Part shown: piece by piece, positions 36,495-58,249 of the stretch
Numbering within the stretch: the stretch's first letter is position 1
Layout of the letters: each line of letters starts with the position of its first letter
Origin: a virus
Taxonomy: Duplodnaviria; Heunggongvirae; Uroviricota; Caudoviricetes
Virus record (IMG/VR): IMGVR_UViG_3300048672_000527
Location: 36,770 to 100,769 of that record
Strand: one strand, 5' to 3'
Length of the DNA stretch: 64,000 nt
The notes under the pieces: model-generated
The model's input: the letters and a program-made list of their open reading frames with translations, nothing else
Databases searched by the model: none
What the model was told of the DNA's origin: nothing
Program-made: the position numbers and the translations under genes

Positions 36495-36894
36495 AAATGA
36501 TAACATTGTTCTATTTGGTAGTTTAGCGGCATCTGTTCCATTACTGGTAGCAATAATATCCAAGGTTTATAAGAATGTCCGTACCGATAGTGCTTCACTA
36601 GTTGGTATACAAAGTGATGCGCAACGGATCAAGGATATGCAAGAATCTTTGCGTCTTAAGGATCAAAAGATTGATGAAAAAGATGCACTGATATCAAAGC
36701 TTGTAGAGGATAAGGTTGATCTATCTGGTAAGGTAGGTAAACTTGAAACTGAACTAGCACACGCTATGGAACAAATTGCATATTTGACTAACTTAGTTGA
36801 ATATCTGGTCAAACAAAACGGGGGAAAGATTCCTCTAGACTTGGTAATTCAAGGAGCTAAATTCCACGATATGCTTGACAGAGAAGGTGACTAA
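36484..36894 (+). CDS. N-terminal TM anchor + coiled-coil protein
   Basis: Hydrophobic residues 8-26 followed by heptad-rich helix. Confidence 0.7.
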   Translation: MTFENDNIVLFGSLAASVPLLVAIISKVYKNVRTDSASLVGIQSDAQRIKDMQESLRLKDQKIDEKDALISKLVEDKVDLSGKVGKLETELAHAMEQIAYLTNLVEYLVKQNGGKIPLDLVIQGAKFHDMLDREGD

Positions 36895-50783: not shown

Positions 50784-51191
50784 ATGGCAATCACTATTCT
50801 AAAAAATACCCATAACTTGGCTGTTGTCAAGTTTGCGGGTACCACACTAAACGATACACTTACACTTAATACAGCTCTTCGTTTAGCAACTCAAATTGGT
50901 GGTACACCAGACTGTCCAATCATTGCAGCAACATGGGCATGTACACCAGGTGCTTCTGATCTGATTACGATTACACGTGGAGGTACTACTGTACTTCAAC
51001 TATATCGCAATGGTGTTATGGATTTTGGTCCACTGGGGTTTTATGACAATACGGGTTCGGCATCTGATATTGTAGTAACATCGGTTGGTACAGCACAGTT
51101 ATATCTAACAATCCGTAAGACTGGCTATATTTCTTCAGTTGAGCCTGAGAAGTTTGGTTCTTATGATAACCCAGCAGTGGTGGGCAGCTAA
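50784..51191 (+). CDS. Head-region hypothetical protein
   Basis: Between the gp67-like gene and gp21; beta-rich. Confidence 0.65.
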   Translation: MAITILKNTHNLAVVKFAGTTLNDTLTLNTALRLATQIGGTPDCPIIAATWACTPGASDLITITRGGTTVLQLYRNGVMDFGPLGFYDNTGSASDIVVTSVGTAQLYLTIRKTGYISSVEPEKFGSYDNPAVVGS

Positions 51192-51192
51192 C

Positions 51193-51849
51193 ATGAAATT
51201 TCTACGTGAATCAATAGACTTTAATGATGTACAGATTATCACCGAGGGTACTGGTGATAATAAAACTTTGTTTATTGAAGGTATCTTTGCTCAAGCAGAG
51301 AAAAAGAACCGTAATGGCCGCATTTATCCAAAACAAATTATGGAGAGTGCAGTTAACAAATATGTGAACGAATTCGTTAATAGTCGCCGAGCTTTGGGTG
51401 AACTTAGCCACCCAGAAAGCCGCCCAACTGTTAAGCCAGAACTTGCTTCACACTTAATTACCACACTTCGTTTCGAGGGAAATGATGTTTATGGTAAAGC
51501 GAAAGTACTCAATACACCTCAGGGTAATGTTCTTAAAGGACTTCTTGAGGGTGGTGTGCAAATGGGTGTCTCAACACGCGGTCTAGGTTCTATTGAAGAA
51601 CGTGCGGGAACCGTATATGTTAAAGACGACTTTGCAATGATGGCTATTGATGCAGTATCAGACCCAAGTGGTATTGATTGCTGGGTTAACGCTATCAACG
51701 AAAGCCGTGATTGGGTTTATATTGATGGACGTTACGAAGAACGTGAAATTGAAGCAGCAAAGGCAGCTATTAAAACAGCTACCACCAAGCAACTTGAAGA
51801 AACAGCACTGCGTCAGTTTCAAAAGTTCATGAAAACCATCAAAAGTTAA
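51193..51849 (+). CDS. gp21: Prohead protease
   Basis: IEGIFAQAE.KNRNGRIY, ALGEL.HP, SH.I, GVSTRGLGS, D.VSDPS. Start reassigned to ATG 51193. Confidence 0.95.
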   Translation: MKFLRESIDFNDVQIITEGTGDNKTLFIEGIFAQAEKKNRNGRIYPKQIMESAVNKYVNEFVNSRRALGELSHPESRPTVKPELASHLITTLRFEGNDVYGKAKVLNTPQGNVLKGLLEGGVQMGVSTRGLGSIEERAGTVYVKDDFAMMAIDAVSDPSGIDCWVNAINESRDWVYIDGRYEEREIEAAKAAIKTATTKQLEETALRQFQKFMKTIKS

Positions 51850-51850
51850 A

Positions 51851-52414
51851 ATGATAACAACTCTTTATATAAAAGAACATAAAGAATCTGGTTTAAAATA
51901 TTTCGGTAAAACAACCAAATCGGATGTAGATTCATATGACGGTTCTGGAAAATACTGGAAACGTCATTTGAAAGAACATGGTAAAAATGTCAAGACAATT
52001 TGGTCTGAACATTTTGAAAATAAAGAACTTCTTCAAGAATTTGCGGAATTTTTCAGTGACTTCTTTGATATTGTAAAATCTGATAATTGGGCAAATTTGA
52101 AACCAGAAAATGGTCTTGATGGATGGGTTATTGGTCAAAAACATGATCCAGAAACAAAACTAAGTGGAATGAGAGGAAAGAAACATTCCACAGAAACTAA
52201 ATTGAAAATGAGCTTAGCTAGAATTGGTAAGAAATTAAGCGAAGAACACAAGGCAAAATTAAGAATCCCCAAGAGTGATATAGCGAAACAAAATATATCA
52301 AAAGGTAGAATGGGATTTAAGCATTCCACAGAAACTAAATTGAAAATAGGAAATTCTGTGAAATATGGGAAAACTGTAGATGGTGCATCATTTGGTGCAA
52401 TTCTTGAACAATAA
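51851..52414 (+). CDS. Seg-like GIY-YIG homing endonuclease with NUMOD3 repeats
   Basis: LYIKEHKESGLKYFGKT..YDGSGKYW..HG; WANLKPENGLDG; KHSTETKLK twice. Confidence 0.85.
   Translation: MITTLYIKEHKESGLKYFGKTTKSDVDSYDGSGKYWKRHLKEHGKNVKTIWSEHFENKELLQEFAEFFSDFFDIVKSDNWANLKPENGLDGWVIGQKHDPETKLSGMRGKKHSTETKLKMSLARIGKKLSEEHKAKLRIPKSDIAKQNISKGRMGFKHSTETKLKIGNSVKYGKTVDGASFGAILEQ
52184..52347 (+). repeat. 26-nt direct repeat encoding NUMOD3 motifs
   Basis: CATTCCACAGAAACTAAATTGAAAAT at 52184-52209 and 52322-52347. Confidence 0.85.
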
Positions 52415-52444: not shown

Positions 52445-53482
52445 ATGGCACTAGAAGATAAGATCAAAGCTTTGAAAGAAGCAGCTGCAAAACTAAATGA
52501 AGCAAAGTCTAAAGAGGCTGACGAAGATCAGGATAATGACATCACCAATGATAACGAGAAGGATGCATTGGTCGATGGTTCTGAAGATGAGACCAAAGGT
52601 AAAAAGGGTGATGCTGTGAAAGAAGCAACAGATCCAAATCAATCTCAAGCAGCTACTGGTCAAGACCAAGATAAGGTTGGTACTAGCAATGCAAAGATCA
52701 AGCGTAAGATGACAGGTCAAGACCCTAAGCCAACTGGTCCAAGCCCAGTTAAGGAAGCTATTGATCTAGGTGCCCTGTTTGATGGCACTGATTTGACAGA
52801 AGAATTTAAGACCAAGGCTATTACGATTTTCGAAGCAGCAGTGGCGGCACGTGTTTCCCAAATTCAGGAATCACTGGAAGAAGAATTGGCTCTTCGTGCT
52901 CTAACCGAGTCCGAAGAACTAAAAGAGGGGTTAGTTGAAAAAGTTGATGGATACCTTGACTTTATTGTCGAGCAGTGGATGAATAAGAATGAAATCGCCC
53001 TTGACCGTGGTATCAAAGCGGAAATCTTTGAGAGCTTTATTAGCAAGATGCATGATGTGTTCGTAGAGCACAACATTAATCTTCCTGATGAAGAATTTGA
53101 TCTGGTAGAATCTCTACAAGATAAGAATGAAGCTCTGGAAGAATCCCTAGATGAACAGGTCGCTCAGAACGTCGAATTGACAAAGACTATTAAGCAATAT
53201 GCTAAGGATGCAGCAATCAATGAAGCTACCGAAGGTATGACTGATATTGATGCTGAAAAGTTCTCGCTATTGGCTGAAGAAATTGCTTTCGATGATGAAG
53301 TCTCGTTTAAGACAAAGTTGAACGTAATCCGTGAAAACTATGTTGGTAATAAGACAGCTAAGAAGGAAGAAAAGGTCCTGGAAGAAAATGTTACACTAGA
53401 TGCTAACACACCAGCACCATTGAATGAAACAGTTAAGACTCTCGATCCAAATATGGCTCGTTACGTCAGCGCAATTAAGTAA
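52445..53482 (+). CDS. gp22: Prohead core scaffolding protein
   Basis: LTEEFKTKA.TIFEAAV, LVEKVDGYLD..VEQW..NE.A...GI..E..ESF, F..KL..IRENY, M.RYV.AI. Confidence 0.93.
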   Translation: MALEDKIKALKEAAAKLNEAKSKEADEDQDNDITNDNEKDALVDGSEDETKGKKGDAVKEATDPNQSQAATGQDQDKVGTSNAKIKRKMTGQDPKPTGPSPVKEAIDLGALFDGTDLTEEFKTKAITIFEAAVAARVSQIQESLEEELALRALTESEELKEGLVEKVDGYLDFIVEQWMNKNEIALDRGIKAEIFESFISKMHDVFVEHNINLPDEEFDLVESLQDKNEALEESLDEQVAQNVELTKTIKQYAKDAAINEATEGMTDIDAEKFSLLAEEIAFDDEVSFKTKLNVIRENYVGNKTAKKEEKVLEENVTLDANTPAPLNETVKTLDPNMARYVSAIK

Positions 53483-53509
53483 AACGTCATCAACTATAAG
53501 GAAAATAAA

Positions 53510-54778
53510 ATGACAACTCGTGCAGATTTAGTTAAAAAGTGGGCTCCAGTTCTGGAAGCTGAAAATGCTCCAAGGATTACCGATAACTACCGTAAGGAAG
53601 TTACAGCTGTTCTTTTGGAAAACCAAGAACGTAACAACATGGAAGAACGTGCAGCTCTGTTTGAAGCTGCTCCAACCAACTCGGCTGGTGCAATGCCTGA
53701 CACAGGTGGTGTAGCCAAGTTCGATCCAGTGTTGATCAGCTTGGTCCGTCGTGCAATGCCAGCAATGATTGCATACGACATGTGCGGTGTTCAACCAATG
53801 ACTCAGCCAACAGGTCTGATCTTCGCTATGAAGAGCAAGTATGGTACACAAGGTGGTACTGAAGCTCTGTTTAACGAAGCTAACTCAGCATTCTCTGGTA
53901 CTGGTACTCAAACCGACGGTACTATGGGTCCAGCTGGTGCAGGTGCTACAGCAGGTACTGCATACGCAACAGCAACAGCTGAAGCTCAAACCGGTTCTGG
54001 TACATCGCCAACAAACTTCGGTGAAATGGCGTTCACAATTGAAAAGACTTCTGTCACCGCTCAAAGCCGTGCTTTGAAGGCAGAGTACAGTGTTGAACTG
54101 GCTCAAGACTTGAAGGCTGTTCACGGTCTGGATGCAGAAGCTGAACTGAGCAATATCCTGTCTCAGGAAATCTTGAATGAAATTAACCGTGAAGTTATTC
54201 GTTCCATCTACATCGCTGCAAAGCCAGGTGCTCAAGTTGGTACTGCTACAGCTGGTGTATTTGACCTGGACGTTGACTCTAATGGTCGTTGGTCTGTTGA
54301 AAAGTTCAAGGGTCTGTTGTTCCAAATCGAGCGTGAAGCTAATGCGATTTATCAACAAACTCGTCGTGGTCGTGGTAACTTCATCGTTTGCTCTGCAGAC
54401 GTAGCAAGTGCTTTGGCTATGGCTGGTGTTCTGGACTATGCTCCAGCACTGTCAACAGGTCTGAAGGTTGACGAAGCATCTAGCACTTTCGCAGGTGTTC
54501 TGAATGGTAAGTACAAGGTTTATGTTGATCCGTTCGCAGCAAACCAAACTGCTTCTCAGTTCCTGATGGTTGGTTATAAAGGTTCTTCTTCGTTTGACGC
54601 TGGCGCATTCTACTGCCCATACGTTCCACTGAGCCTGTATCGTGCTGTTGATCCAGCAACCTTCCAACCAAAGATTGCTTTCCGTACTAGATATGGTTTC
54701 GTTGCAAACCCATTCACATCTTTGACTTCTGGTCAAAATATCTATTACCGCAAGGTGACTGTAAACAACTTGATGTAA
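53510..54778 (+). CDS. gp23: Major capsid protein
   Basis: DPVLISLVRRAMP, CGVQPM..PTGLIFAM, FGEMAF.IEK..V.A.SRALKAEYS.ELAQDLKAVHGLDAE, FQPKI.F.TRYG. Confidence 0.98.
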   Translation: MTTRADLVKKWAPVLEAENAPRITDNYRKEVTAVLLENQERNNMEERAALFEAAPTNSAGAMPDTGGVAKFDPVLISLVRRAMPAMIAYDMCGVQPMTQPTGLIFAMKSKYGTQGGTEALFNEANSAFSGTGTQTDGTMGPAGAGATAGTAYATATAEAQTGSGTSPTNFGEMAFTIEKTSVTAQSRALKAEYSVELAQDLKAVHGLDAEAELSNILSQEILNEINREVIRSIYIAAKPGAQVGTATAGVFDLDVDSNGRWSVEKFKGLLFQIEREANAIYQQTRRGRGNFIVCSADVASALAMAGVLDYAPALSTGLKVDEASSTFAGVLNGKYKVYVDPFAANQTASQFLMVGYKGSSSFDAGAFYCPYVPLSLYRAVDPATFQPKIAFRTRYGFVANPFTSLTSGQNIYYRKVTVNNLM

Positions 54779-54811: not shown

Positions 54812-54845
54812 TAGCCCCTAGTAGAAATATTAGGGGCTATTTTAT
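54812..54845 (+). terminator. Intrinsic terminator after gp23
   Basis: TAGCCCCTAGTA-GAAA-TATTAGGGGCTA followed by TTTT. Confidence 0.85.
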
Positions 54846-54891
54846 TATCTTAATTTTGATATATACTAATGAATGCAAATAAAGGTTGGAT

Positions 54892-56355
54892 ATGTCATTT
54901 GAAATTATAGAGAAACTAAAACAAATTCGAGAAAACCCAAGAAAGATGCAAGAGAAATACTTGAAGTCTTCTGGTGTATTTGATTACATTGTGGATAATA
55001 CACATGACTATGTGTCTTGGAAAATTAAAGATCGTATTGATTTTATTATTGGCGGATGTGAGAAAAGACTTTGTCATTGTGGTAATCAATTAAAAACTTG
55101 GCAAAGTCATTGTTCACAAAAATGTGCAGGAAGTGATCCAGAATTTGTTAAAAGAATTTCAAAACTGCAAAAAGATAATGCAGTTGATAGATATAACAAA
55201 ACAAAGAAGACAATGCTAGAGAAATATGGGGTAACACATAATAATCAATTACAAAGATGCATAGATAGTAGAAAACAAAAACGAGAACTGTATCACAAAG
55301 AGCTCAGAGTAGAAACATTCAAGAAATATGGACTCGATATATCTAAATTTCAAACGACAAAAGAACTACAAGAAATGGTTGATAATTGTTGTTCACTAAC
55401 AGAATTAAGTAGTAACTTTTTCGGTGGGATGCCCAAAACAACGATTGTTCGCCATATGTCAGAGTATGGTGTCAAGTTAATTAATGACGTATCAACTTCT
55501 GCTGGAGAAAAAGATTTGGCCAATTTTGTGAAATCTCTTGGTTTTGAAATTTCACAAAATAATAGAGATATTATTAAACCATATGAACTTGATATAGTAG
55601 TTGAATCAAAGAAAATCGCGATTGAATATAATGGAATTTATTGGCATTCTGAAGAATGTGGTACTGATCCAAATAGTATGAAGATGAAATTAGAACTGGC
55701 CAATAAAGCTGGTTATCAAGTCATCAATGTTTTAGAGAGCGAATGGATACTACAACGTGAAAAAGTCGAGTCTATTATCTCATCGAAACTCGGCATAGTA
55801 AAGAATAGAATCTATGCACGCAACTGTAGTGTTAAATTTATAGATTCTAAGACCGGTAAGCAGTTCTTTGAGAAAACACATATCCAGAATAATGCTGTAG
55901 CAAAGTATTATATTGGATTATATAATGGTGAAAATTTAGTAGCGGCGTGTTCTTTTGGTAAATCTAGGTTTGATAAAATGTGTGATTATGAGTTAATTAG
56001 ATTCTCTAGTGAATTTAACACACAGATAGTCGGTGGATTCTCGAAAATTTTGAAGTTTTTCAAAACAAATGTTCCGGGATCAATTTCAACATACTGCGAT
56101 TTACGATATTCGAATGGTTCTATGTATAGCCAATTTGGCGAATTAATAAAGAAAACTTCGCCAAATTACTCTTGGTATACAGTTTTAGGTGATGGTGAAG
56201 CACTTTCACGTTATAAAACACAGAAAAAGAAATTGAAGACTTTATTCCCAGATAAATATAGAAATGATCTTTCTGAAAATGAGATCATGGAGAGTGCTGG
56301 CTACTTTAAGGTTTTCGATTGTGGCAATTTACTCTACAACTTAAATAGGATTTGA
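54892..56355 (+). CDS. Hef-like homing endonuclease (DUF559/PD-(D/E)xK-type nuclease + C-terminal domain)
   Basis: S.GEK.L..F, PYELDI...IAIEYNGIYWHS, IYARNC, YEL.RF, VGGFSK, YCDLRYSNG, V.DCG; N-terminal CHCG..CSQKC. Track start is TTG 54886. Confidence 0.75.
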   Translation: MSFEIIEKLKQIRENPRKMQEKYLKSSGVFDYIVDNTHDYVSWKIKDRIDFIIGGCEKRLCHCGNQLKTWQSHCSQKCAGSDPEFVKRISKLQKDNAVDRYNKTKKTMLEKYGVTHNNQLQRCIDSRKQKRELYHKELRVETFKKYGLDISKFQTTKELQEMVDNCCSLTELSSNFFGGMPKTTIVRHMSEYGVKLINDVSTSAGEKDLANFVKSLGFEISQNNRDIIKPYELDIVVESKKIAIEYNGIYWHSEECGTDPNSMKMKLELANKAGYQVINVLESEWILQREKVESIISSKLGIVKNRIYARNCSVKFIDSKTGKQFFEKTHIQNNAVAKYYIGLYNGENLVAACSFGKSRFDKMCDYELIRFSSEFNTQIVGGFSKILKFFKTNVPGSISTYCDLRYSNGSMYSQFGELIKKTSPNYSWYTVLGDGEALSRYKTQKKKLKTLFPDKYRNDLSENEIMESAGYFKVFDCGNLLYNLNRI

Positions 56356-56356
56356 C

Positions 56357-56575
56357 ATGGATAGAGCAAAAAGAATTCAGCAAAAAGAAAATTATGCCAA
56401 AAAACAAATGAAAATTGCAAAACGAATTGGCTCTACATTAAAATCAGAAAAGCATGTGGAACATGCTGCCATGGATTGTGGAACACCTAACTGTTTCTTG
56501 TGTGGTAATAGAAGACTTCATGATGGGTTAACATATCAAGAAAGAAAATTATTTCAGGATTTAGAAAATGCGTAA
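56357..56575 (+). CDS. Small basic Cys-motif protein
   Basis: DCGTPNCFLCGN.R motif. Confidence 0.7.
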   Translation: MDRAKRIQQKENYAKKQMKIAKRIGSTLKSEKHVEHAAMDCGTPNCFLCGNRRLHDGLTYQERKLFQDLENA

Positions 56576-56897
56576 ATTAATATTTCTTATAGTTGCTTTA
56601 CTAATAGCATGTGGCCCATCTGAGATTAAAATGTATAATATGACATCTCGTGATCGCTGGACTGTAGCTACTATTGAGACGCACTGGATCAATAAATCAA
56701 ATATTGACTCTACATGTAAGAAACTCGGCACAAATGACGAAGGTGCCACGCAATATAAGGGCTGCGCCAGGTCAAAACCGGGTGATATGTCTATATGTGA
56801 GATATATACGGTAAGACCCGAAGATTTTGACGATACTGATAAACTTCAGAGCCTTGGCCACGAACTTTGGCATTGTTTGGGTGCTACACATAAATAA
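56568..56897 (+). CDS. Predicted lipoprotein with HExxH metallopeptidase motif
   Basis: Signal + lipobox LIA|C; C-terminal GHELWHC.G. Confidence 0.65.
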   Translation: MRKLIFLIVALLIACGPSEIKMYNMTSRDRWTVATIETHWINKSNIDSTCKKLGTNDEGATQYKGCARSKPGDMSICEIYTVRPEDFDDTDKLQSLGHELWHCLGATHK

Positions 56898-56900
56898 TTA

Positions 56901-57431
56901 ATGAAAACATTTAAAGACTATTTGATTGAATCCGCCGGTGGTAACTATGTCTGTATTGACGCACCGGATTTATCCGATTTTTGGCCTCGCTTTGGATTAC
57001 AAGAGCCAATCAGCGGAGAAGCACCCCCAAACAAAGACTATCACTGTACACTGATTTATAGCAAGGGTACAGATATTAATCCAAAACGTGTAAAGAGTTA
57101 TATTGATACATATTTCCCAAAAACAGTATCAGCTGAAGTTCACGGGTTTGAGTGTTTTGATTCACTTCCAAAAGACGGAGAACGAGATATAGCGAAATCT
57201 TGTATTGTTATGGAACTTGATAGTACGGTACTACGTGAAATGCACAAAGAACTGAAGGATTTAGGACTGTCTCATTCGTACCCGGAATTCCGCGCACACG
57301 TGACGATTAGATACAATATGAGCGTAGAAGAAGCACATTTTTACAAAGATAAGCTGAATTCCATGCATATTTCAATGAAAATTCCGCTATCAAATTTTAA
57401 GTCAGAATCTATTAATACCAACTACGTCTAA
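56901..57431 (+). CDS. acb1: 2H phosphoesterase, T4 57B/Acb1-like anti-CBASS nuclease, with capsid-targeting N-terminus
   Basis: Two HxT motifs (YHCTLIYS, AHVTIRY); V.ELDS..L..H..L..G..H.Y..F spacing as in T4 57B; N-terminus MKTFKDYLIE. Confidence 0.75.
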   Translation: MKTFKDYLIESAGGNYVCIDAPDLSDFWPRFGLQEPISGEAPPNKDYHCTLIYSKGTDINPKRVKSYIDTYFPKTVSAEVHGFECFDSLPKDGERDIAKSCIVMELDSTVLREMHKELKDLGLSHSYPEFRAHVTIRYNMSVEEAHFYKDKLNSMHISMKIPLSNFKSESINTNYV

Positions 57432-57712
57432 TGCCAGCAATAGCTTTTAAAGGTTGTAAATGCACCGGTCATGGACCATATCCGCCACGGGCGAATGATG
57501 CGGGTTCGGGTAATGTGTTCGTTGAGGGCATTCCAGTACACCGTGTTGGTGATCACTGGCCCGATCACACGTATCCCAAGCATGGTGATAGTTCACTGGC
57601 GGCCGGGTCTGGCACAGTGTTTGCTAATGGTATCGCCGTGGGTAGAATTGGTGACATGGTTGCTTGTGGTTCTGCAATTGCAGAGGGTTGTAGTACGGTT
57701 TTTGCAGGATAA
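57431..57712 (+). CDS. PAAR spike-tip protein (gp5.4-like)
   Basis: CTGHG.YPP, GS.NVFVEGIPV.RVGD, GS.TVF.NG..V.RIGD...CG. Confidence 0.92.
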   Translation: MPAIAFKGCKCTGHGPYPPRANDAGSGNVFVEGIPVHRVGDHWPDHTYPKHGDSSLAAGSGTVFANGIAVGRIGDMVACGSAIAEGCSTVFAG

Positions 57713-57715
57713 TAT

Positions 57716-58249
57716 ATGCCAATTTTAAGTTGCCCAGTGCCTTCAACAATTTCAACGTTGAATCCAAATTCATTTCAGTTCTCTATACAGAAGTATCCAG
57801 AGCTGAATTACTTCTTGCAAGAAGTATCTCTACCAACAGTTACACTGGGAACAGCAATTCAGACATCTAGTGTTCATGATGTCAAGCTGCCAGGTGAAAC
57901 AATGGAATTTGGAACACTTAATATCGAATTCTTAATTGACGAGAAGATGAGTAATTATCTAGCACTGTTCGGTTGGATTCAAGGACTTGGTTACCCCGAG
58001 GGGCATCAACAGTATACACAGTATATGAACGAGAATAGAAACTCTAATGGTTTCAGTGACAATTCAAAAATGGTTTCAGATTGTTTCCTGATGATTATGG
58101 ATAGCAATAACAAACCGCTACAGCGCTTTACATTTGTTGATGCTTTCCCGACTTCACTTGGTGCGCTGACGTTCCGCTCAAACAATACGGATGTACAGTA
58201 TTTGGTTGCTTCATTGACAATGGAATACTCGTATTTTAAACTCAGCTAA
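57716..58249 (+). CDS. gp3: Tail completion / tube terminator
   Basis: L.PNSFQF.I.K.P...YF.Q.V.LP, PGE.MEF..L...F.IDE.M.NY, F.F.DAFP.SL..L.F. Confidence 0.92.
   Translation: MPILSCPVPSTISTLNPNSFQFSIQKYPELNYFLQEVSLPTVTLGTAIQTSSVHDVKLPGETMEFGTLNIEFLIDEKMSNYLALFGWIQGLGYPEGHQQYTQYMNENRNSNGFSDNSKMVSDCFLMIMDSNNKPLQRFTFVDAFPTSLGALTFRSNNTDVQYLVASLTMEYSYFKLS

Follow-up and report, generated by a model that had tools for sequence, protein, structure and literature searches.

The DNA considered here is a stretch of 64,000 nucleotides (below, “the window”), positions 36,770 to 100,769 of the IMG/VR record IMGVR_UViG_3300048672_000527. The record itself is a single sequence of 164,769 bp with 40% GC from an uncultured T4-like phage; the sequencing runs that contain the stretch are mostly freshwater metagenomes. 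On the + strand, at 56901..57431, the window holds a gene for a protein of 176 amino acids (plus stop), which matches Pfam PF23474 (Acb1) and Acb1 chains in the PDB, i.e., 2H phosphodiesterases of a family with known activity against the cyclic oligonucleotide-based antiphage signalling system (CBASS). Its first ten residues, MKTFKDYLIE, resemble the capsid targeting sequence (CTS) of the T4 internal head proteins. Why should an enzyme of this kind carry such a leader? We believe, with rather more confidence than doubt, that the gene encodes a pro-enzyme composed of a ten-residue T4-type CTS and an Acb1 2H phosphodiesterase, which is packaged and processed. Acb1 and the CTS are each well known; their combination in one protein appears to be new.

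The N-terminus leaves no choice of start codon and is unambiguous, because only one in-frame codon separates the ATG from the upstream stop; it reads MKTFKDYLIESAGGNY (in a longer reading, MKTFKDYLIESAGGNYV). The T4 leaders can be read directly from NC_000866: those of IPII and IPIII are MKTYQEFIAE/A (the slash marks the cut), and that of IPI begins MKTFKEF and has the full form MKTFKEFTSTTTPVSTITE/A. Relative to these three, all ten positions of MKTFKDYLIE/S are identical or conservatively replaced. The end of the leader, L8-I9-E10/S11, is (I/L)-x-E followed by a small residue and fits the site of the prohead protease gp21, which cuts after Glu in I/L-x-E (preprint PMC12991175). The predicted CTS or propeptide occupies 56901..56930 (+), with a predicted gp21 cut after E10 (LIE/S), and the mature protein would start from Ser11 as SAGGNYVCIDAPDLSDFWPR. 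The CTS is sufficient to encapsidate foreign proteins (PMC3012670).

Across 23 homologs, which diverge to about 40% identity, E10 never changes and the conservation of F4 and L8 exceeds 90%; Y7 is also conserved across this leader-bearing Acb1 clade, and the conservation of these four residues at such divergence argues for selection. In the AlphaFold2 model (24 homologs) residues 1-11 have a predicted local distance difference test score (pLDDT) below 50, and the fold begins at residue 14, strand 1 being residues 14-20; many other members of the Acb1 family start straight at this strand (MGNYF.., MSGNYV.., MSNGIYV..). A BLOSUM scan of all start positions of the genome ranks the Acb1 leader far above all others. 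Judging from these comparisons, we take MKTFKDYLIE to be, very probably, a true capsid targeting sequence of the T4 type. The earlier note on this DNA, which had proposed a CTS from the letters and quoted the IPIII leader as MKTYQEFIAE, was right on both points: the leader matches those of IPI, IPII and IPIII and behaves as a modular gp21 propeptide. When gp21 (51193-51846) and the first 45 residues of the Acb1-like protein were put through a complex prediction, the score was 0.00; run without controls, it is evidence neither way.

The BLOSUM scan also shows a small cluster of looser leaders near genome coordinate 3.2-5.5 kb, outside the window. One belongs to a 194-aa cytidylyltransferase-like open reading frame (ORF) starting (M)VSLKDYIKE/S (G000:C1:3182-3766, or L129:1183-1767; phrog_3041, E 6e-63), the other to the adjacent Lys/Glu-rich ORF of 569 aa starting MQFKEFINRN... 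(G000:C1:3769-5478, or L129:1770-3479). By their starts, the two may be candidates for extra tagged head cargos of this phage.

Is the leader a module that phages attach to different proteins? IMG/VR was scanned with a degenerate DNA pattern for M-K-T-[FY]-[QK]-[DE]-[FY]-x-x-E, in which position 8 was allowed to be V and F too. The pattern occurs at no fewer than 120 loci, nearly always at true ORF starts; in the 128 matches listed an upstream stop almost always precedes the motif by a few codons or less. This is far beyond chance, the expectation being about one match by a rough estimate that assumes equal base frequencies and a guessed size of the collection. The following counts also refer to the matches listed. 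With the leader stripped, 122 ORFs fall into 47 unrelated cargo clusters; the cargos include an IPIII homolog (L114) and ART-PolyVal, Zeta-toxin/AAA_33 (L035), HicA and DnaJ domains. Among the 114 distinct sequences about 99 have L, I or M at position 8, despite V and F being allowed, and synonymous codons vary freely; selection therefore acts on the peptide and not on the RNA. Arrays of two to four unrelated MKTFKE[YF].. ORFs are found at L024:2357-3910, L111:572-3568, L020:1133-2433 and L067:6037-7306, on contigs of uncultured T4-like phages (16-247 kb; Peptidase_S77, i.e., gp21-type, protease in L020, L024 and L111); the arrays of L024 and L111 comprise three or four tagged ORFs, and all resemble the hyperplastic internal-protein loci of T4.

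The leader also turns up inside proteins. Four Acb1 homologs (P0044, P0047, P0054 and P0073; locus L127:8001-9533) are fused downstream of an ART-PolyVal ADP-ribosyltransferase, and the junctions retain the peptide: ..KTLNEFLIE/AKVGNY.., ..MKTLSQFLIE/SKVGDY.., ..LDAFLSE/AKTGDY.. and ..YEMFLSE/AMHGNY... Since the peptide is kept as an interdomain linker, a protease site fits, while an N-terminal cap or a translation signal does not. By sequence, the fusions resemble polyproteins, with a site at which a protease of the gp21 type could separate the two domains. In the genome considered here a search for an ART-PolyVal domain gave no match; the same search was also blank in control genomes, so its absence is unproven. 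One further homolog, P0018 (221 aa), has an extra N-terminal module, MIKLKQFLEDPCWQGYRQLGTKKKKGKTVPNCVP, before a second CTS-like peptide; a similar motif, CWPGYKKKG..., also follows the CTS in ORFs of L020, L042 and L111.

The presumed partners of the CTS are encoded by this phage. The gp21-type prohead protease, the presumed processing enzyme, is at 51193..51849 (+; Pfam PF03420, Peptidase_S77, E 2e-41 at 51139-51849; likely start MKFLRES), and the protein on which the CTS would presumably dock, a scaffolding core protein of the gp22 type, is at 52445..53482 (+; Pfam PF25623, T4_CASP, E 8e-66; PHROG head scaffolding). The major capsid protein gp23 (53510..54778, +; Pfam Gp23, PF07068, E 4e-136) offers ALFE/A as the predicted cleavage site of its own propeptide when this region is aligned with T4 gp23 around the known FLTE/A cut. 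Among the matches of the scan, 8 of the 10 large contigs with tagged ORFs have the S77 protease, including all three complete ones; the two negatives are only 19% and 33% complete. The IMG/VR Acb1 loci with a full (L132, L133, L175) or partial (L135, L142) CTS-like leader are all S77-positive, and no such leader was found on Acb1 in the near-complete S77-negative records (0 of 14). L146 has a near-canonical leader on Acb1 and is a 24%-complete fragment in which S77 gave no match.

We presume the following course of events. The Acb1 gene would be expressed alongside the head genes, and the leader would dock the pro-enzyme on the gp22 scaffolding core of the assembling prohead. There gp21 (S77) would cut after Glu10 (Y-L-I-E/S) to leave an enzyme of 166 residues (~19 kDa), whose new N-terminus would lie three residues before strand 1 and five before the presumably base-stacking Tyr16. 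The mature enzyme would stay in the head with the DNA and be ejected into the next host, where it could hydrolyse adenine-containing cyclic di- and trinucleotide signals, those of CBASS and possibly the cyclic triadenylate (cA3) of type III CRISPR (clustered regularly interspaced short palindromic repeats), before the phage genes are expressed. Copies left unpackaged would do the same job late in infection, the time at which prohead proteases are reported to trigger CBASS (preprint PMC12991175).

What is the enzyme? The score with Pfam PF23474 (Acb1) is 48.3 bits, above the curated cut-off of 27, and phmmer matches the solved Acb1 chains 7t26, 9q2g and 9q2y. The AlphaFold2 model (mean pLDDT 84.6) is a compact 2H fold; the first five PDB structures ranked by Foldseek are those of BCSR5 (9q2y/9q2g) and of FBB1 Acb1 (7t26/7t27), E 3e-09 to 2e-07, followed by Usb1, LigT, a plant cyclic phosphodiesterase (CPDase) and a poxvirus cGAMP (cyclic GMP-AMP) phosphodiesterase at E 3e-04 or worse. 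Equivalent residues were taken from a sequence alignment with T4 57B (Acb1), in which the roles of the T4 residues are known (Hobbs et al., PMC9117128). The catalytic H44/T46 and H113/T115 of T4 align with H48/T50 and H133/T135, i.e., with the motifs H48-C-T50 (57042..57050, +) and H133-V-T135 (57297..57305, +), of which H48, T50 and H133 are invariant in our alignments A1 and A4. The base-stacking Y12, W74, F107 and W147 align with Y16, F86, Y127 and Y175, so that, by alignment, aromatic character is retained and residue identity changed at three positions; E141, which contacts adenine N6, aligns with E169, the residue expected to read it here. The protein is in all likelihood an Acb1-family cyclic-oligonucleotide phosphodiesterase, and its substrate range would be that of the family. 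The earlier note had described a 2H ORF with HCT and HVT, starting with MKTFKDYLIE, as “Acb1-like”: the ORF is real and is read at 56901-57431 (+), and the Acb1 likeness is supported by the Pfam score, the Foldseek ranking and the aligned ligand-contact residues.

A 170-aa Acb1-like gene in Burkholderia phage BcepSauron (MK552141; L131:2345-2857) goes by the name “prohead protease” in its GenBank record and by “RNA ligase” in that of RefSeq. A reading of this locus as Acb1 fused to a prohead protease was rejected as an annotation artefact, there being one gene with differing labels; it is probably misannotated.

Is the gene expressed when heads are made? The earlier note had pointed to a late-promoter-like sequence before the gene. 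The CATAAATA box is indeed present at 56889..56896 (+), where it coincides with the end codons (CAT AAA TAA) of the upstream ORF (56568-56897). It is unconvincing as a conventional promoter for this ATG, since only 4 nt lie between the two, the box runs into the stop codon of the ORF before it, and the + strand of the genome shows no enrichment of TATAAATA (12 occurrences against 11.3 expected from composition); TATAAATA as a genome-wide late promoter was rejected on the same counts. The better candidates seem to be CTAAATA and ATAAATA where they stand before gene starts. Of the 29 + strand occurrences of ATAAATA, 15 lie no more than 45 nt before a predicted start, against 15% for permuted 7-mers (3.4-fold). 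The arrangement ATAAATA-N4-ATG, with no Shine-Dalgarno sequence, is present at five gene starts of this genome (window 56889-56903, and G000:C1 7648, 48060 (window 11291), 120799 and 133697). In the tagged ORFs of IMG/VR, among the matches listed, NATAAATA has its maxima 5 nt and about 20 nt upstream of the ATG. These arrangements could reflect a leaderless late mRNA, an A/U-rich initiation element or coupling of termination and reinitiation; translational coupling of the Acb1 gene to the 109-aa upstream ORF is possible, because the stop of that ORF lies 3 nt before the ATG.

A relative, L126, is more informative. Its Acb1 ortholog (55% identical) occupies the same slot, in the order gp20-gp21-gp22-gp23-endonuclease-Acb1-gp3-UvsY, and is preceded by CTAAATA-N5-AAGGAG-N6-ATG, the architecture that is also found before gp22 of L126; gp22 of the phage considered here likewise has CTAAATA plus AAGGAG upstream. 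Late expression of the Acb1 gene seems likely, because the ortholog shares this slot and has the gp22-like element of CTAAATA plus Shine-Dalgarno. A cargo that docks on the core needs to be regulated together with the scaffold.

Several observations weigh against a packaged Acb1, and the first of them concern expression. A strong terminator-like hairpin directly after gp23 (54812..54839, +; a 12-bp stem and then a T-run) separates the gp22-gp23 transcript from the downstream block with the Acb1 gene; no convincing conventional promoter, including one of sigma-70 type, was found before the gene; and in the two metatranscriptome runs matching the region, contigs from related strains span only gp23 (53500-54760). 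A strict regular expression for ORFs with the canonical CTS, applied to the whole 165-kb genome, finds the Acb1 ORF as its sole match. The mature protein is acidic (isoelectric point 5.8), compared with the basic IPI*, IPII* and IPIII* of T4 (9.0-9.7). The link between leader and S77 among the Acb1 records has a one-sided Fisher probability of about 0.06, on few records. T4 57B itself begins with MMEFKDFSTGLY (MMEFKDF..), a degenerate leader that has no I/L-x-E site, and we know of no report that T4 Acb1 is packaged. Many Acb1 homologs have short, variable N-terminal helices, so that part of the leader might be intrinsic to the family. Finally, the source phage is uncultured and the case for packaging is computational.

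Some of these points suit a simpler explanation: the protein is an ordinary cytoplasmic Acb1 that is not packaged and works solely in the cell where it was made, and the leader is an N-terminal helix of this Acb1 subfamily, vestigial or structural in nature, or else a remnant of recombination at internal-protein loci. The degenerate start of T4 Acb1, the short and variable leaders before strand 1 in many homologs, the acidic mature protein and the single canonical tag in the genome are what this explanation has in its favour. It accounts poorly for the leader itself. E10 is invariant and F4, Y7 and L8 are conserved in spite of divergence to 40% identity, in a pattern identical to the tag that suffices for packaging in T4; the leader is common to at least 47 unrelated families in phages encoding S77; and it lies outside the predicted fold and is kept as a linker in the fusions, where an N-terminal cap is impossible. 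We regard a purely cytoplasmic Acb1 as unlikely, though worth keeping in mind.

It can also be proposed that the leader is a substrate of gp21 and not a packaging signal, the protease maturing or regulating Acb1 in the cytoplasm or at the prohead with no delivery; Acb1 activity would then be tied to the same protease that trips CBASS. Consistent with this, gp21 is reported to activate CBASS CD-NTases (cGAS/DncV-like nucleotidyltransferases) late in infection by cutting loops of the I/LxE type (preprint PMC12991175), the predicted cut is close to strand 1 and to the ligand-stacking Tyr16, and the fusion proteins retain a cleavable linker. Against it, the same decapeptide in T4 is a targeting signal and not merely a cleavage site; the leader is disordered in the model, and nothing points to an inactive uncleaved form. 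In addition, gp21 is active mainly inside proheads. Cleavage that is not accompanied by packaging seems to us quite improbable. That the enzyme is of the LigT or 2',3'-cyclic phosphodiesterase type, healing RNA ends as part of a tRNA/RNA-repair gene set and not degrading signals, is hardly credible: the name “RNA ligase” of the matching PHROG 755 and a weak match to Pfam 2_5_RNA_ligase2 (16.4 bits, under the cut-off of 27) speak for it, but the Acb1 model scores threefold higher, Foldseek E-values favour Acb1 structures over LigT or Usb1 by about four orders of magnitude, the four base-stacking aromatics and the adenine-N6-reading Glu are conserved, and the gene is not near a tRNA/repair cluster. 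The earlier note had named a structure closer to LigT-type RNA enzymes as grounds for giving up its proposal; the model is nearer Acb1, Foldseek ranking the Acb1 structures above LigT, Usb1 and CPDase.

The packaged pro-enzyme thus being the reading that we prefer, its surroundings can be described. The + strand carries, in order, terminase, gp18, gp19, gp20, two small prohead-core-like ORFs, gp21, a GIY-YIG/NUMOD3 endonuclease, gp22, gp23 and the terminator-like hairpin; then a 489-aa homing endonuclease, a 72-aa ORF, the 109-aa lipoprotein-like ORF and the Acb1-like ORF; and downstream of it a PAAR protein, a gp3-like protein, UvsY, UvsW, gp55 and gp47. The PAAR-repeat (gp5.4-like) tail-spike tip gene follows directly at 57431..57712 (+; Pfam PF05488, E 6e-13), and the gp3-like tail tube terminator gene is at 57716..58249 (+; BLASTP to T4 gp3, E 2e-07; PHROG tail tube; its L126 ortholog is PF23849). 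The placement between gp23 and gp3 that had been described earlier holds.

The head-gene block is broken by two genes of the homing-endonuclease type: the GIY-YIG/NUMOD3 gene between gp21 and gp22 (51851-52414) and the 489-aa, Vsr/MTES-like gene after gp23 (54886-56355); in L126 the latter site holds a different endonuclease. The RNA contigs of two studies both stop near the 3' end of gp23, by the hairpin at 54812-54839. The 109-aa ORF upstream of the Acb1 gene (56568..56897, +; its stop 3 nt before the Acb1 ATG) has a lipoprotein-type signal ..LLIAC/G and an HELWH (HExxH) motif, and Pfam and PHROG searches with it gave no match. The ORF is missing in the 98%-identical relative L117, in which the ATAAATAATTA-ATG junction is kept; a recent insertion or deletion therefore took place directly upstream of the Acb1 gene.

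How far does the leader extend in the Acb1 family? In an exhaustive HMMER search a CTS-like leader is at the N-terminus of 68 of 171 Acb1 representatives (~40%). On an Acb1 tree computed with the leader columns removed, the tagged state needs 30 changes, compared with 43 for shuffled labels, and well-supported branches force at least nine; the tag is therefore clustered, yet its gain or loss has recurred. The T4 gene acb1 (57B) is the immediate upstream neighbour of ipI (L121:3592-4411, i.e., NC_000866 73591-74410), and the N-terminus of 57B looks like a truncated CTS, a degenerate derivative of it. It is tempting to propose that Acb1 is widely packaged into the heads of T4-like phages, perhaps since the origin of the family; we put this forward tentatively and lean somewhat against it.

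Of the known systems, the nearest are T4 Acb1 (57B), the Acb1 of Erwinia phage FBB1 (7T26/7T27) and the phosphodiesterase of Burkholderia phage BCSR5 (9Q2G/9Q2Y). The protein shares with them the 2H fold, two HxT motifs, the stacking aromatics, the adenine-reading Glu, a short C-terminal lid aromatic and membership in PF23474, and a position adjoining gp3 in a T4-like genome is a further likeness. The differences are an identity of only 21-25%, an insert of about 12 residues (the SLPKDGERD loop), a complete CTS ending in LIE/S where T4 57B has MMEFKDF with no cleavage site, and a place within the gp23-gp3 structural block, whereas the T4 gene follows genes 1 and 57A.

The CTS of the T4 internal proteins was reportedly described by Mullaney and Black in 1996, a paper cited in PMC3012670 and PMC12991175. 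With IPI, IPII and IPIII our protein has in common the N-terminal MKT[FY][KQ][ED][FY][IL]xE followed by a small residue, the encoded gp21 and gp22, and the modular nature of the tag. IPI* is an injected anti-defence protein that inhibits GmrSD. The cargo here, in contrast, is not a small basic protein; it is an enzyme, acidic, and its family is known to act against CBASS; there is one canonical tag instead of a hyperplastic multi-gene locus, and it is known from sequence alone. T4 Alt, an ADP-ribosyltransferase, travels in the virion and enters the host together with the DNA; ART-PolyVal domains (PF18760) occur both CTS-tagged (L067) and fused upstream of Acb1, whereas our protein has Acb1 as its one domain. 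That an activity against CBASS can enter with the DNA has a precedent in the ejectosome protein Gp15 of vibriophage ICP3, a virion-borne, injected protein reported to inhibit the CBASS effector CapV (preprint, bioRxiv 10.1101/2025.07.23.666291); Gp15 blocks the effector stoichiometrically and is itself an essential structural protein of ejection, whereas an accessory, signal-degrading enzyme is proposed here. A description of a CTS-tagged Acb1 was not found in the literature searched, in which a single paper mentions both “Acb1” and “capsid targeting” and refers to the CTS work just for the cleavage rule of gp21.

CBASS, Thoeris, Pycsar and type III CRISPR act via small-molecule signals, and the known anti-CBASS nucleases are, to our knowledge, described as made after infection. 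A degrading enzyme that is already in place at DNA entry could neutralise such signals more safely. An Acb1 with a CTS joins two well-studied T4 systems, internal-protein packaging and Acb1, and the survey suggests that the combination is common among uncultured T4-like phages. The same tag is seen on ADP-ribosyltransferase, Zeta-like kinase, HicA-like and cytidylyltransferase-like proteins, and the leader is a sequence handle for finding more virion-delivered anti-defence enzymes. Should head packaging prove widespread in Acb1, this would be the first family of enzymatic “internal proteins” whose substrate is known, a cargo matured by the same gp21 protease that is reported to trip CBASS, and many phages would enter the cell already armed against cyclic-oligonucleotide signalling.

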